Shown: positions 1,301-10,041 of the stretch, piece after piece
Layout: every line of letters begins with the position of its first letter
Numbering within the stretch: the stretch's first letter is position 1
DNA from: a bacterium
GTDB taxonomy: Bacteria; Patescibacteriota; Minisyncoccia; Phycocordibacterales; UBA5272
Length of the DNA: 53,333 nucleotides
Assembly: GCA_043719155.1 (NCBI GenBank)
Contig: JAYSUJ010000002.1
Span: forward strand, 1 to 53,333
Reading direction: 5' to 3'
Made by a program: the position numbers and the translations under genes
The notes under the pieces: generated by a model
What the model was told of the DNA's origin: nothing
Databases searched by the model: none
The model's input: the letters and a program-made list of their open reading frames with translations, nothing else

Positions 1301-1721
1301 AATTATAATTTGCAGGCTTTGAGGGATTCCGGAACTTGTGAGCTCCGGAAATTATTCATGTTTTTTGTTCACTAGTCTGAAGGGTTCGCCTTCAACTCGA
1401 TTTTCATCTCAATAAGTATATTAAGATGGAAAATTTTTCCATTTGCGCCGCCGAACCGAATCTTTTGCACGACGACTTTTGGGTTCCGTTCGAGTCCAGT
1501 AAAGCCATTGTAGTGAGGTATTACCCTAGCTACGGTTTGCTCTATCGTTTCTCCAATGTGTGTTTCAACCCACAACACCGGCCGGTGTACAGTTTGCAGA
1601 TGGGTTATGGGCGGGAAAGCGTCTGTTTGACGCATTTCACCGCAAATAATTTCCAAGCAGATTTCACTTATCATTGCCGGGGACCTCCTTCAAATCCCTC
1701 AAAGCCTACAAAATTATAATT
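1301..1721 (-). other. Stem-enclosed mini-gene cassette 1 (arms 1301-1328 and 1693-1721; hairpin 1327-1350)
   Basis: aattataatttgcaggctttgagggatt is the near-perfect reverse complement of aatccctcaaagcctacaaaattataatt. Confidence 0.85.
1372..1674 (-). CDS. Hypothetical cassette cargo protein (100 aa)
   Basis: ATG preceded by AAGGAGGT; fills the loop of cassette 1. Confidence 0.7.
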   Translation of the reverse strand: MISEICLEIICGEMRQTDAFPPITHLQTVHRPVLWVETHIGETIEQTVARVIPHYNGFTGLERNPKVVVQKIRFGGANGKIFHLNILIEMKIELKANPSD

Positions 1722-1738
1722 TCGTAACACCAGAGAAA

Positions 1739-1972
1739 CTATTTAGCTAAAACTACGTTTGAGATGTGTAGAGGGTTGGCTTTCTTTACGATAGTTCCCT
1801 TTTCACCATCTTTTTTCGCTTTAACATTTTTAGTTTTCAAGTTTATACCATCAACTAGAACTTGTTCTAGTTTTGGAAAAACTTGTAGTACTTTTCCTGT
1901 TTTACCTTTATCGGCTCCGGCTATTACTTTCACATTATCTCCTTTTTTAATCATATATTTTGGTTTGCTCAT
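1739..1972 (-). CDS. rplX: 50S ribosomal protein L24
   Basis: IKKGDNVKVIAGADKGKTGKV KOW motif, PLHISNV; ATG at 1972. Confidence 0.96.
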   Translation of the reverse strand: MSKPKYMIKKGDNVKVIAGADKGKTGKVLQVFPKLEQVLVDGINLKTKNVKAKKDGEKGTIVKKANPLHISNVVLAK

Positions 1973-1982
1973 TTTATTTTTC

Positions 1983-2401
1983 AATAATGAGTATCACCTA
2001 TTTGTTTACAATAATTACAATCTTTTTCAAGTAGCGAAGTTTTGATTTTAAACATCAAAACTTCGCTAGCACAACTTAAACTTAAAGAATACGCCGACTT
2101 ACAAAATAGAGATAGTACGGCGAGTAGAAACAGTGGAAACGGACAAATATCCCATGATTGAATGTTTTTTTCCAATCTTCGAAATATCGGTCTGCTCTCA
2201 TCTTCGCCTCTTCGTCATCCACTGCTTTGAAAATCTGCACTTTTTCAAGTGACCTTACAATGCCCAACCAATAATGCACATCAACACGCATACGTAATTC
2301 GTACAAATTAGTTGTTCCGTTAGCCATTTATATTCTCTCCTTCGGTTGTGTTGAAAAAAACTACAATTTGTTTTGTAAACAAATAGGTAACACACATTAT
2401 T
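1983..2401 (-). other. Stem-enclosed mini-gene cassette 2 (arms 1983-2030 and 2351-2401; 15-bp perfect hairpin 2032-2068)
   Basis: aataatgagtatcacctatttgtttacaa pairs with ttgtaaacaaataggtaacacacattatt. Confidence 0.85.
2082..2327 (-). CDS. Hypothetical cassette cargo protein (81 aa, FKAVDDEEA motif)
   Basis: AAGGAG SD before ATG; fills the loop of cassette 2. Confidence 0.75.
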   Translation of the reverse strand: MANGTTNLYELRMRVDVHYWLGIVRSLEKVQIFKAVDDEEAKMRADRYFEDWKKTFNHGIFVRFHCFYSPYYLYFVSRRIL

Positions 2402-2429
2402 TATTTTTAAAAGAACTATTTATTTTTAA

Positions 2430-2810
2430 TTATAGGACTTCAGGTGCTAGTGAAATAAGCTTTTGATACCCCAAACCTGCCAATTCTCTTGGTACTGGAC
2501 CAAAAATACGGTTAGCTCGAGGTTCTTTTGCTTGTTTACCTTTTCCGTTAATAATAACTACCGCGTTGTCAGAAAATGAAATGTATGAACCGTCAACTCT
2601 TCTAAAAGGTTTTTTGGTTCGCACAATCACTCCGTAAACTACGTCTTTTCTTTTTATCATCTTTCTTGGTTCAGCAACTTTAATAGACAACACTACCACG
2701 TCTCCTACATAAGCAGTTCTGTGGCGTGTACCTCCCAAAATTGTGAACACCCGACCATGCGTACCACCAGAGTTATCTGTGATAACCACGTTTGTTCCGA
2801 TTTTTATCAT
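2430..2810 (-). CDS. rplN: 50S ribosomal protein L14
   Basis: DNSGG, VGDVV, VIVRTKK, RRVDGSYISFSDNAVVII, RIFGPVPREL, ISLAPEVL. Confidence 0.98.
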   Translation of the reverse strand: MIKIGTNVVITDNSGGTHGRVFTILGGTRHRTAYVGDVVVLSIKVAEPRKMIKRKDVVYGVIVRTKKPFRRVDGSYISFSDNAVVIINGKGKQAKEPRANRIFGPVPRELAGLGYQKLISLAPEVL

Positions 2811-2846
2811 ATTTATTTTTAAATATTTACACTAGTTGCCCTCTTT

Positions 2847-2877
2847 CCTCTCCTTTGTAAGGAGAGGCTAGGTGAGG
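2847..2877. repeat. GC-rich REP-like palindrome cctctcctt-tgt-aaggagagg followed by ctaggtgagg
   Basis: Perfect 9-bp inverted repeat in an AT-rich spacer upstream of rplN. Confidence 0.55.
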
Positions 2878-7797: not shown

Positions 7798-7844
7798 TTT
7801 TGTCAAAGGAACAATTTGTTTTTTAGTTTATGAGACTTTTTGCT

Positions 7845-8507
7845 TTACGCAATTTTCTGTTCTAAGAATTTTGTCATATTTTCTACATCGACCATTACTA
7901 TGTAACGAGTGTTCATAACGTCTAATGCAGACGCCTGAGCAATTGTTTTTACGGTAACTTGTGGAATATTTCGAAACGCACGCAATAATGTTTCAGATTT
8001 TTCAGGGGTATAAATAACCATGTTCCCTGCTTTTCTGAAGGTAAGATTTTTAAAGTTCTCTACTTTTGACAAGTTTGTCAAAATAGATTCTGCTTCTTTT
8101 GTTTTTGGTTCGTTAAGAGTAATTTTGTCTACTAGTAAAATTTTACCAGAACGCAATTTGTCTGAAAGGACCATACAGAAAGCCAGACCACGAGATTTCT
8201 TGTTGATCTTTTTAGAATAATCTTTGTCCGAACGAGGACCGAAGGTAATACCACCACCACGCCAAATAGGTGAACGGATAGAGGCATGACGCGCTCTGTC
8301 CATTTCCTTTTGTGGCCAAGGCTTGATACCACCACCACGAACTTCGTTACGAGTTTTAGTATGGGCAAGTCCAGCTCTTTTGTTTGATTGTTGAGAAACG
8401 ATAACTTGGTGAACCAAGTCTTTGTTAAGCTTCAAACCAAACACAGACTCTGACAGAGTAACTTCCGCAGCTTCTTTACCTAATTGTGTATATTGTTTTG
8501 TTTTCAT
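7845..8507 (-). CDS. rplD: 50S ribosomal protein L4
   Basis: [43 protein letters not shown] 8507 (MKTKQY) preferred. Confidence 0.97.
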
Positions 8508-8533
8508 ATATTTTATTTTGCACAAAAGTATTT

Positions 8534-8942
8534 TATCAAGTACCACAATTTATTTAGAATGATTGTAAATTTTGTTAGAGGCACAAGCAATTTCATTTCT
8601 TACTTTCGCTTGTGCTAGGGTTTATTGTCTTAAACTCGAGAAGTGCTGATTGTAGTTGTTTCTACAATTTTTTGGAACTCTCCGAACTCGAGAAGTTTCG
8701 CGCCTATGTAGTTGGCACGTGCGTTTGAAATTATCTGGTTTTTATTCACAACAGCATCTTCATCAGATTCTGCTTTAAAAAAAACCATTCTTTCGTTCCA
8801 ATGTGGCTGATCACTGTCGTCATAGTTCCGCGTCGCAACTTGGTACAAGACTAAGTAAGTTTTCACTTTGCCTACTCCTTTTTTTGCTACCCCCAAGAAA
8901 ATTTACAATTTTATTTTTCTAAACAAATTGCGATACTCGATA
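8534..8942 (-). other. Stem-enclosed mini-gene cassette 6 (arms 8534-8573 and 8898-8942; hairpin 8581-8615)
   Basis: tatcaagtaccacaatttatttagaa pairs with ttctaaacaaattgcgatactcgata. Confidence 0.85.
8630..8866 (-). CDS. Hypothetical cassette cargo protein (78 aa, FFKAESDEDA motif)
   Basis: AAGGAG SD before GTG at 8866; fills the loop of cassette 6. Confidence 0.72.
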   Translation of the reverse strand: MKTYLVLYQVATRNYDDSDQPHWNERMVFFKAESDEDAVVNKNQIISNARANYIGAKLLEFGEFQKIVETTTISTSRV

Positions 8943-8968
8943 TTTACTTTTTAATGTGCTATTTCAAT

Positions 8969-9592
8969 TTAGTTAGAAACTATTTCTATTACCCCACCTG
9001 GTATACCTGGCACCGCACCCTTTACGAGCATAGTTTTAGTAACTGGGTCTATTGCTAATACTTTTAAATTTCGTACTGTTATTCTTTCTGTACCCATTCT
9101 TCCGGCCATTTTCATGCCTTTGACTACACGTCCTCCGGCACGCCCACCTCCACCGATAGATCCAGGCTCACGAAGAGCGTGATGCACATTGTGGATAGGA
9201 CCTTTACCTTTGAAACCATGTCGTTTTACAACACCTTGAAAACCTTTACCTTTAGAAATACCAGAGATAGTTACCGTGTCACCTTTTGCAAATTGGTCAA
9301 CACCTAGCACTTGTCCAACTGTAAAGCCAGTGATTTCAGCATCTGCTTTCGCAGCTCTGAACTCCATAACTTTTTGGAAAAGTCCTGCATATTGTTTTAC
9401 TTGAGGCTTGTTTACACGATGTCCTTTTTGCACTCCGTACCCTACTACCAATGCTGGATAACCATGTTTGTTCTTGTCTTTTATCTCAAGAACCGTCATT
9501 TCAGCGAATGATAAAATAGTTACTGCATGTGCCTCTGCGTTTTCATCAAAGTATTGAGTCATTCCTGACTTTTTTGCGAGCATTACTTTCAT
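8969..9592 (-). CDS. rplC: 50S ribosomal protein L3
   Basis: KSGMTQ, GISKGKGFQGVVKRHGF, REPGSIG, KGMKMAGRMG, VKGAVPG. Confidence 0.98.
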   Translation of the reverse strand: MKVMLAKKSGMTQYFDENAEAHAVTILSFAEMTVLEIKDKNKHGYPALVVGYGVQKGHRVNKPQVKQYAGLFQKVMEFRAAKADAEITGFTVGQVLGVDQFAKGDTVTISGISKGKGFQGVVKRHGFKGKGPIHNVHHALREPGSIGGGGRAGGRVVKGMKMAGRMGTERITVRNLKVLAIDPVTKTMLVKGAVPGIPGGVIEIVSN

Positions 9593-9668
9593 ATTTTTTC
9601 TTTTAAGAGGAATCTTTTTTGCATTTGAGATTCATTAACATTAATTTATTAATTTTTAAATTACTTTC

Positions 9669-10041
9669 TATCAAGTATCACATTTTGTTTATAACTTTTT
9701 ATTACAAATTATATTCTTTAAGAAGTGGGAGAGGTTCGACTCTCCCGAAGGTGTTCAGACCGACACTAGCCACGGCCAGTAGTAGCGGTAAAAAAGCCAG
9801 GTGACCAATGCACACGCAGCTAGAAAGTCAAAGAACATGACATAGTAGCCAAGAATATAGCCATATGGCCCGGACTTGAAACCTGTTAACCGCTCAGCAA
9901 TTTTAAAAAATATACTGAGACGGATAACCACAAAGGCTCCGTAGACAAAAATGATCAAGTTCATTGTTGACTCCTATTTTCCTGTTTGGTTTGCCTTCTT
10001 AAAGAATACAATTTGTTGTAAACAAAATGTGATACTCGATA
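9669..10041 (-). other. Stem-enclosed mini-gene cassette 7 (arms 9669-9725 and 9995-10041; hairpin 9727-9746)
   Basis: tatcaagtatcacattttgttta...tattctttaagaag pairs with cttcttaaagaata...taaacaaaatgtgatactcgata. Confidence 0.87.
9755..9964 (-). CDS. Hypothetical two-TM membrane cassette cargo protein (69 aa)
   Basis: AGGAG SD; two hydrophobic stretches; fills the loop of cassette 7. Confidence 0.72.
   Translation of the reverse strand: MNLIIFVYGAFVVIRLSIFFKIAERLTGFKSGPYGYILGYYVMFFDFLAACALVTWLFYRYYWPWLVSV

Follow-up and report, generated by a model that had tools for sequence, protein, structure and literature searches.

Strand bias of wobble pairs in the paired ends of small gene cassettes from ribosomal-protein operons

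A ribosomal-protein operon in the 53,333-nt stretch of bacterial DNA analysed here (the window) is interrupted by small inserts, each bounded by two complementary but imperfectly matched arms. A preliminary description of the window had held that most mismatches between arms (20 of 24) are G-U wobbles on the mRNA strand, a bias not expected of decaying DNA repeats, and had proposed that this strand is apparently under selection for a fold that it adopts when single-stranded. The locus thus raises the question of whether the strand bias is genuine and, if so, which molecule folds and to what end.

A cassette family confined to translation-apparatus operons

The genome contains 12 such cassettes, eight in the window and four on contig C25. 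They are inserts of 230-420 nt found only in the spacers between ribosomal-protein genes and in the 23S rRNA leader, 11 of the 12 lying between protein genes. All share the same layout, in which layered arms enclose an open reading frame (ORF) led by a Shine-Dalgarno (SD) sequence and a hairpin 3' of the stop codon (Table 1). Arms are homologous across the 12 cassettes, differing by roughly a quarter to a third from one to another, and paired arms lie 200-390 nt apart; the interiors do not align with one another. The first 13 positions of the outer arm are conserved in sequence, a feature that RNase III alone would not demand and that may reflect a sequence-specific partner (a protein or a DNA enzyme). 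The arm of c4 is the most divergent of the family (inverted repeat of 31 nt, 90%); in c1 the inner-type arm alone is well kept.

A search of the genome with an arm profile gave 18 matches with E≤0.8, all in C2:1984-10042 or on C25. All fall between ribosomal-protein genes, save the final C25 pair, which precedes the 5' end of the 23S rRNA; the cassette that it bounds is separated by 95 nt from the downstream 23S 5' end as located by Rfam. A genome-wide scan for long-range inverted repeats yielded 12 pairs, 8 of which belong to cassettes.

Table 1. Host operon and cassettes of the window. Operon genes were named from reading the ORF sequences.
Feature	Position	Strand	Description
Host operon	185..11777	minus	tuf, S10, L3, L4, L23, L2, S19, L22, S3, L16, S17, L14, L24, L5, S12, all minus
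c8	9669..10041	minus	S10/L3 spacer; arms 9995-10041 (5' on mRNA) and 9669-9725 (3')
c8 ORF	9755-9964	minus	69 aa, hydrophobic
c8 hairpin	about 9722-9741	minus	
c7	8534..8942	minus	L3/L4 spacer; outer arms 8917-8942 and 8534-8559
c7 ORF	8630-8866	minus	GTG start
c6	7464..7795	minus	L4/L23 spacer
c6 ORF	7559-7732	minus	57 aa, one hydrophobic segment
c5	6631..6990	minus	L23/L2 spacer
c5 ORF	6725-6922	minus	65 aa
c4	3216..3591	minus	First of two adjacent cassettes in the S17/L14 spacer; ORF 3286-3540
c3	2941..3186	minus	Second cassette of the S17/L14 spacer
c3 ORF	3025-3126	minus	33 aa, hydrophobic
c2	1972..2412	minus	L14/L24 spacer; ORF 2082-2327, 81 aa
c1	1301..1720	minus	L24/L5 spacer; ORF 1372-1674, 100 aa; inner-type arm 1309-1328 and 1693-1712, inverted repeat 95%

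In all 12 cassettes the sense strand has the longest ORF, which in ten of them exceeds 95% of shuffles; an eleventh, the SD-led ORF of c3, has a shuffle p of 0.094. An SD-like 4-mer precedes each of the 11 cassette ORFs, as against 1 of 23 host genes. These 11 ORFs are unrelated among themselves. No relatives were found for the four that were searched (including those of c7 and c1), none of the 11 reached a curated Pfam cut-off, and no match to the intervening sequence (IVS, S23p) family was obtained at E≤0.1. Three of the products (c3, c6 and c8) are short and hydrophobic by reading and the other eight are not; type I toxin mRNAs of the hok-like kind, with a 5'-3' fold-back, encode a small hydrophobic toxin peptide and have an antisense RNA partner.

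Promoter-like sites number 24, for an expectation of 26.8. Terminator-like sites, at 10 for an expectation of 8.8, are at chance level and the hairpins 3' of the ORFs lack T runs, making read-through plausible. On the same grounds, neither signal exceeding expectation and no T run following the hairpins, a phage-type moron equipped with its own promoter and terminator was rejected.

The operon proteins retrieve the orthologous operon in 12 relatives. A genome of the same genus (G001), whose contig shows five of the junctions, has no cassettes there, its spacers measuring 5-139 nt, and comparison of c6 with the same-genus spacer places the cassette as an insertion into native spacer DNA. The spacer DNA of c8 finds matches in none of 40 relatives, and the arm motif was not found in the 95 family genomes searched. 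Judged from these comparisons the cassettes are clearly gained DNA; some mechanism acting at the DNA level must therefore exist. They are probably mobile, and appear to have moved as units.

Mismatches, covariation and folding of the arms

To count mismatches, the 5' flank of each cassette was aligned to the reverse complement of its 3' flank with a local aligner giving all mismatch types an equal score. True inverted repeats were obtained in all eight window cassettes, just where the preliminary description had placed them. Under four scoring schemes the window yielded sense G-U, antisense G-U and transversions in the ratios 26:4:29, 24:3:18, 19:2:9 and 27:6:39, and the whole set of 12 cassettes gave 31-51 sense against 3-14 antisense; the bias thus persists under proper alignment. 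Window cassettes and the four on C25 together give 47:7:52, corresponding to a sense share of 0.87. The hand count reported earlier, 20:2:2, had therefore captured the direction and size of the bias but had underestimated transversions, most of which are A opposite A at the AT-rich outer ends of the alignments, as read from the mismatch lists. The example originally singled out, the outer arms of c7, does have four mismatches out of four that are sense G-U. Elsewhere in the window, sense and antisense G-U number 5 and 1 in c6, 3 and 0 in both c5 and c3, and 6 and 0 in c2; c1 has a single sense G-U, and c4 no transitions and three transversions.

Fourfold-degenerate sites in the 23 ribosomal-protein genes of the operon served to gauge the local strand skew, although codon selection acts on such sites in highly expressed genes. 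They are skewed towards keto bases on the sense strand (T.488 vs A.344; G.097 vs C.072), and the ratio fT×fG/(fC×fA) of 1.92 predicts a sense share of about 0.58-0.66. In the cassette ORFs this ratio is 1.06. Binomial P values for 47 sense pairs out of 54 are 1e-8, 4e-6 and 4e-4 at expected shares of 0.5, 0.58 and 0.66, respectively; for the window (26/30) they are 3e-5, 7e-4 and 0.01. Local G/T skew, which the preliminary description had named as the possible undoing of its claim, is thus too small to account for the observed share (P 4e-6 to 4e-4). Not all events are independent, since two arm columns show an identical wobble in 4-6 of 10 cassettes. If each combination of column and pair type in the outer arm is scored only once, 13/15 are sense (P 0.004 to 0.07), and removing the two recurrent columns leaves 36/43 (P 3e-4 to 0.008). 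When arms of different cassettes are cross-paired the sense share is still 0.73, below that of own-arm pairs (26/28 vs 0.727, P 0.009); the bias is in part a family-wide asymmetry that could be inherited rather than newly selected.

The outer arm (26 columns, 10 cassettes) comprises 224 Watson-Crick cells, 26 sense G-U, 2 antisense G-U and 8 transversions. A cassette's own arms pair at 24-26 of the 26 positions, as compared to a mean of 19 with the arms of other cassettes. At least two Watson-Crick pair types are found across cassettes in 17 of the 26 columns, and one column has the wobble in both orientations (G-U in four cassettes, U-G in two). In a covariation test, carried out among paralogous copies of one genome and not among orthologues, 94.4% of 195 cells pair and both sides change in 11 of 20 pairs, a level reached by none of 500 shuffles; slid partners pair at 33-49%. 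Uncompensated differences within cassettes amount to 28 transitions and 8 transversions, whereas the differences between cassettes that are matched on both arms amount to 308 and 536 (Fisher P 1e-6).

Folding energies show the same asymmetry. The sense arm duplex has -47 to -58 kcal/mol in all 12 cassettes and the antisense duplex -18 to -52, the sense form being the more stable in every cassette but c4. Minimum free energy (MFE) folds of the sense strand have 27-45 closing pairs in all 12. The RNA of c8 folds with closing helices of 23 bp (outer) and 22 bp (inner), at an MFE of -135.1 (z -10.5) as opposed to -116.7 (z -7.8) for the antisense; in c7 the values are -124.8 (z -8.9) and -101 (z -4.3). 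Folding with DNA parameters likewise favors the sense strand (-58.6, z -5.9, vs -49.6, z -3.5). Altogether, the small skew, the excess of transitions, the covariation and the stability of the duplexes support the original proposal that the mRNA-sense strand is selected for its fold as a single strand. The arms appear to be kept as a fold of that one strand, most likely as RNA, although the DNA-parameter fold shows the same preference.

Competing explanations and the folding molecule

One competing view regards the arms as ordinary terminal inverted repeats in the double-stranded DNA of a MITE-like element, now simply decaying. On the exposed sense strand of an operon transcribed at a very high level, C-to-T and A-to-G mutations would predominate, and this strand bias would account for the G-U excess. 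Any sense G-U can be written as a change of this type, and the keto skew of host-gene four-fold sites has the appropriate sign; however, that skew predicts a share of 58-66% where 87% is observed, the four-fold sites of the cassette ORFs are unskewed, and the sense strand of the unpaired flanks, as read from the mismatch lists, is rich in A and not in T. Neutral decay should also leave many transversions, as is the case between cassettes, yet these are few within them, and it cannot produce differences between cassettes that are matched on both arms. Such an origin of the bias is highly improbable. Alternatively, pairing might be unselected, the two arms of each cassette being young mutual copies (made by insertion or gene conversion) that inherited their wobbles from a common ancestor element. 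Recurrence of the same wobble at two columns and the sense share retained by cross-cassette pairs are what one would expect from this origin. Against it, the bias remains once those columns are removed, own pairs stand above the cross-cassette share, and unrelated interiors and diverged arms argue for age, yet nearly all outer positions still pair. We consider shared ancestry without selection very unlikely.

A fold in single-stranded DNA fits the same counts, since the sense strand doubles as the non-template strand and, probably, as the lagging-strand template. In that case a structure-specific enzyme would recombine or transpose the cassettes by way of the folded arms, with G-T wobbles tolerated in the DNA hairpin, much as with integron attC, IS200/IS605 or REP. 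Consistent with this idea, DNA-parameter folding is better on the sense strand, the 13 outer positions are conserved as a protein-recognized site would be, gained DNA needs a DNA-level mechanism, and the contents (promoterless, co-oriented ORFs without relatives) are integron-like. The genome also encodes a Y1 (HUH) transposase, but this gene lies between unrelated GC-rich palindromes of its own, and the arm-profile search detected no arm copy near it. Arm spacing in the known folded-DNA sites, such as attC, REP and IS608 ends, is far below that of the cassettes. No integron integrase context was found, and the sole gene of the Phage_integrase family (a tyrosine recombinase) is on another contig, C38. 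Genes of the DDE_3, rve or TnpB type were not found in the assembly, which is 90% complete, and its one DDE_Tnp_1 match is below the cut-off for that family. No constant target duplication was seen at the cassette flanks, nor any empty site or cassette-border joint among the joints listed (15 of 19) on the contigs of four runs. A DNA fold thus appears unlikely, if less so than the two preceding explanations, and the folding molecule would more probably be RNA.

A possible mechanism and its relation to known systems

By analogy with the intervening sequences that RNase III excises from 23S rRNA, we think it probable that these are foreign cassettes without promoters of their own, the two ends of which pair within the polycistronic transcript. 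Mini-gene cassettes would have colonized the spacers of translation-apparatus operons in a single lineage of a Patescibacteria-like bacterium with a small genome. Each would be transcribed within the host polycistronic RNA, where its ends would pair over about 45-70 nt as two or three stacked helices, closing the SD site, the ORF and the post-stop hairpin into a separate domain. Selection would maintain this pairing and, were that so, the only changes to survive would be those leaving a G-U wobble on the mRNA. The stem most likely serves as a double-stranded RNA site for RNase III, for which the genome has a full-length gene, or as a structural insulator, as in ORF-bearing 23S IVS. RNase III would presumably cut the cassette RNA; the stem would separate the insert from the flanking host messages, allowing the essential operon to work. 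All of the evidence comes from one genome, and it is only tentatively that we envisage an undescribed selfish class, the "mRNA intervening sequence": a mobile cassette directed at spacers in the cell's strongest operons (ribosomal proteins, rRNA leader) and having a conserved, wobble-tolerant stem, excised by RNase III or a dedicated factor so as to leave the host operon functional, with a fast-evolving, relative-less cargo that is highly expressed.

If this is true, the stem-closed design of rRNA IVS also works inside protein-coding operons, and foreign genes can be carried on transcripts that are essential and highly expressed while costing the host little, giving the reduced genomes of uncultured bacteria a concrete route to gain and express relative-less genes. 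Twelve related stems of differing sequence, with eight cassettes within 10 kb, would constitute a natural series suited to the study of recognition by RNase III-type or other factors. The strand-specific wobble signature could serve as a general discriminator between inverted repeats selected as RNA or single strands and decaying DNA repeats.

Integron cassettes are promoterless, co-oriented small ORFs, mostly without relatives, that are served by an upstream promoter. Their recombination site is a folded single strand with strand choice, a palindrome present only 3' of each ORF, beside the integrase and attI. The cassettes described here carry ORFs of the same kind; in contrast, their arms stand on both sides of the ORF, a ribosomal-protein operon serves as their platform, and they have no integron integrase beside them. 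Correia repeat enclosed elements of Neisseria are described as hairpin-forming MITEs, co-transcribed with their neighbors, whose RNA hairpin is bound or cleaved by RNase III (PMC2649163; MITEs and REPs are reviewed in PMC3184786). Terminal inverted repeats and intergenic insertion are common to both, as would be the co-transcription and RNase III action predicted for the cassettes. However, MITEs are short, non-coding and alike over their full length, whereas the cassettes each carry an ORF of their own and are homologous in the arms only, with no constant target duplication seen and no partner transposase found.

The 23S IVS of Coxiella burnetii is reported as a 428-nt sequence in which a 28-bp terminal stem, cut by RNase III, surrounds an ORF (PMC4990558). 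Unlike ORF-bearing IVS, 11 of the 12 cassettes lie between protein genes of mRNA operons and none in an rRNA helix; their eleven unrelated ORFs include none that matches the S23p four-helix-bundle family, and their arms, which have a core of conserved sequence, form two or three helices. The likeness extends to the RNase III gene of the cassette-bearing genome (cleavage of the cassettes being a prediction), to a size of a few hundred nucleotides, to a loop that carries a small ORF and is closed by complementary ends pairing over 20-odd bp, and to a site within a very highly transcribed RNA of the translation apparatus, one cassette being located in the 23S leader itself.

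Anatomy and distribution of the cassettes

Six spacers of the ribosomal-protein operon measure 419-790 nt against the usual ~10 nt and enclose eight inserts, cassettes c1 to c8. On the mRNA each cassette opens with ~26 nt of outer arm, which an internal loop separates from the 15-22 nt of the inner arm. Next come a Shine-Dalgarno-like site, the start codon and 33-100 codons of ORF; a GC-rich hairpin sits directly after the stop, and the sequences complementary to the inner and then the outer arm complete the cassette. A third, outermost helix was recognized by eye in the flanks of several cassettes. 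All 18 matches to an outer-arm profile with E≤0.8 lie in cassette spacers or on contig C25, where they bracket four further cassettes. An independent scan of the whole genome, for inverted repeats spaced 150-650 nt, returned 12 pairs, eight of them in cassettes. Together, the profile matches and the scan place all 12 cassettes, co-oriented, in transcription units of the translation apparatus. The genome studied comprises 987 kb in 42 contigs and is 90% complete. Contigs from four DNA runs tile window positions 70-10653 without letter differences and, among the 15 joints listed, none falls at a cassette border; as the source sample itself may have supplied the two deep runs, this agreement confirms the assembly only.

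Coordinates of the operon, the cassettes on contig C25 and other features
Feature	Contig	Position	Strand	Remark
Operon tuf, S10, L3, L4, L23, L2, S19, L22, S3, L16, S17, L14, L24, L5, S12	window	185-11777	minus	genes named by reading of the sequences
Cassette	C25	S8/L6 junction		bracketed by arm-profile matches
Cassette	C25	S5/L15 junction		bracketed by arm-profile matches
Cassette	C25	L10 / L7/L12 junction		bracketed by arm-profile matches
Cassette	C25	end 95 nt upstream of 23S rRNA 5' end		bracketed by arm-profile matches
ORF of cassette d1	C25	826-1062		d1 is one of these four
ORF of cassette d2	C25	2977-3231		d2 is one of these four
Host ribosomal-protein genes	window; C25	185-11777; 126-17741		A/T-rich leaders before starts
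S12 and L5	window	185-1201		S12 directly after L5
L16 and S17	window	3601-4309		13 nt apart
Hairpin unit, ~45 nt	window	~2836-2885		adjoins c3
Hairpin unit, two inverted 37-nt copies	C34	4715-4751; 5099-5135		perfect; around DUF559 gene
Near-palindrome, 79 nt	window	10501-10579		most of tuf/S10 spacer
IS200-like Y1 transposase gene	C37	2964-3626 (locus L030:1339-2001)		220 aa

Other peculiarities were seen in the operon and the genome. A second repeat family, unrelated to the cassette arms, consists of a ~45-nt hairpin unit present in 15 copies on 11 contigs (the window, C1, C9, C11, C17, C24, C29, C32, C34, C38 and C40). The DUF559 nuclease-family gene that two copies surround on C34 (126 aa, E 1e-31) is a candidate for the gene that mobilises this family. 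The near-palindrome of the tuf/S10 spacer (39-nt arms, 72% complementary) could be an operon leader or another small element. The short L16/S17 interval implies that there is no L29 gene at its usual place; the same-genus genome G001 (locus L007) likewise has S12 after L5 and lacks L29 there, and several other relatives have 210-274 nt between L16 and S17.

Strand bias of the arm mismatches

Each 5' flank was aligned to the reverse complement of its 3' flank with a local aligner that scores all mismatch types equally. Mismatches were then classed as sense G-U (wobble on the mRNA strand, which is the minus strand of the window), antisense G-U (wobble on the other strand only) or transversions. 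With the first scoring scheme, the 12 cassettes yielded 47 sense G-U, 7 antisense G-U and 52 transversions, and the eight window cassettes 26, 4 and 29, respectively. Schemes 2, 3 and 4 gave sense:antisense ratios of 43:6, 31:3 and 51:14 for the full set and of 24:3, 19:2 and 27:6 for the window. A preliminary description had counted 24 substitutions by hand, 20 of them sense G-U, two antisense and two transversions. Its ratio of wobbles is reproduced (19-27 sense against 2-6 antisense in the window), but its count of transversions was too low; most of the additional ones, by eye from the mismatch lists, are A opposite A at AT-rich alignment ends. In the 26 well-aligned columns of the outer arm, ten cassettes show 224 Watson-Crick cells, 26 sense G-U, 2 antisense G-U and 8 transversions. 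The hairpins behind the ORFs carry 10 sense and 14 antisense G-U pairs and thus have no strand bias.

Every sense G-U corresponds to a C-to-T or A-to-G change on the sense strand, and these are just the changes that an exposed non-template strand could favour. The preliminary description had named a local G/T skew as one explanation that would undo its claim. A keto skew is indeed present at the four-fold sites in 23 ribosomal-protein genes of the host (T.488, A.344, G.097, C.072), but multiplying the two asymmetries yields only 1.92 and an expected sense share of 0.58-0.66; at four-fold sites within the cassette ORFs themselves the product is 1.06. Against the skew expectation, the observed 47 sense wobbles out of 54 have a P of 4e-6 to 4e-4. 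Events are not independent, since wobbles recur at two arm columns, in 4-6 of ten cassettes; leaving these columns out gives 36/43 sense (P 3e-4 to 0.008), and counting once per outer-arm column and type gives 13/15 (P 0.004-0.07). A stronger argument than this share test is the ratio of transitions to transversions, which is 308:536 for differences between cassettes and 28:8 for uncompensated differences within them (Fisher P 1e-6), as neutral decay would not leave the wobble class only. Local skew is too small for the bias observed.

Pairing itself is specific to each cassette. Of its 26 positions, any 5' arm pairs 24-26 with the 3' arm of the same cassette and a mean of 19 with the arms of other cassettes, and 17 of the 26 outer-arm columns contain at least two Watson-Crick pair types across cassettes. 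When ten whole cassettes were aligned with MAFFT, 94.4% of 195 outer-helix cells were paired and both sides had changed in 11 of 20 pairs. None of 500 shuffles matched this covariation by any measure, and slid partners paired at 33-49%; the cassettes being paralogues of one genome, such covariation weighs less than it would among orthologues. The energy comparison between strands suggested in the preliminary description also favours the sense strand: there the arm duplex is uniform, at -47 to -58 kcal/mol, and more stable than its antisense counterpart in 11 of 12 cassettes. For whole-cassette folds, z is -10.5 sense versus -7.8 antisense in c8 and -8.9 versus -4.3 in c7. Altogether, pairing on the sense strand is under selection.

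RNA or DNA as the folding molecule

The same counts fit arms that fold in sense-strand DNA, and folding with DNA energies does not separate the two molecules. A DNA fold would account for the 13-nt core conserved in the arms and for the fact that the inserts must have entered by some mechanism. As candidate enzymes, only a Y1 transposase, with unrelated palindromes of its own, and one tyrosine recombinase, which we take to be of the Xer type, were found; no DDE_3, rve or TnpB genes were found in the 90% of the genome that is represented. Perfect 20-nt palindromes, rich in GC, lie on both sides of the Y1 gene and occur again within its 3' end, a REP/RAYT-like arrangement. We take RNA as the folding molecule because the arms are 200-390 nt apart, because the inserts are putatively co-transcribed with host genes, because promoter and terminator signals do not rise above chance in them, and because the design matches that of ORF-bearing rRNA intervening sequences. 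Contig C27 of the genome encodes a full-length RNase III. Putative cleavage, or mere closure of the insert into an insulated domain, would allow an essential operon to bear eight inserts within 10 kb. In a cleaved transcript, the released message could be protected by the hairpin that follows its ORF.

Cassette ORFs, relatives and known systems

The longest ORF lies on the sense strand in all 12 cassettes and exceeds that of 95% of shuffles in ten; the 23S-leader cassette is not convincingly coding. The ORFs are mutually unrelated, none reaches the Pfam cut-off, the four searched for relatives each match themselves only, and the c1 ORF has no usable match in the Atlas. A single-sequence structure model of the L10/L12-junction ORF (mean pLDDT 68) has no PDB match at E≤0.001 (best E 0.58); weak GIY-YIG rows at E ~2 are no evidence of identity. 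The otherwise unrelated ORFs of d1 and d2 share their last four residues. A Shine-Dalgarno-like 4-mer precedes 11 of 11 cassette ORFs versus one of 23 host genes; a short motif did not locate the 16S 3' end.

With the same operon proteins as queries, the orthologous operon was recovered in relatives. In G001 (L2 83% identical) the five junctions that its contig covers have spacers of 91, 11, 139, 5 and 36 nt, and eleven other relatives have no cassette-type inserts. Five relatives (L009, L011, L014, L015, L016) carry 2-3-kb inserts at L24/L5 or S10/L3, unrelated to the cassettes, and in G001 the L24/L5 and S17/L14 spacers, where the genome studied has cassettes, hold two copies of a ~30-nt hairpin (by eye). 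Native spacer is still recognisable on either side of c6 at L4/L23. DNA of the c8 spacer matches none of 40 relatives. An arm pattern has 14 matches in the genome studied versus at most three in each of 95 family genomes, where ten single matches checked have no inverted partner. A flank-plus-arm pattern, which by eye fits the 5' flanks of four of the 12 cassettes, found one genome-contig record, without a partner, and none in viral or metagenome contigs. No Rfam family reaches its gathering score in the window; within 1200-10100, two rows below threshold are probably chance.

A narrow literature search found no published description of stem-enclosed ORF cassettes between ribosomal-protein genes. 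The Coxiella intervening sequence measures 428 nt, and its 28-bp terminal stem surrounds an ORF and is cut by RNase III (PMC4990558). Such ORF-bearing rRNA intervening sequences are among the closest known systems, as are MITE hairpins processed by RNase III, for instance Correia elements (PMC2649163), and integron cassettes are close in cargo; the present cassettes differ from each in missing at least one defining feature.
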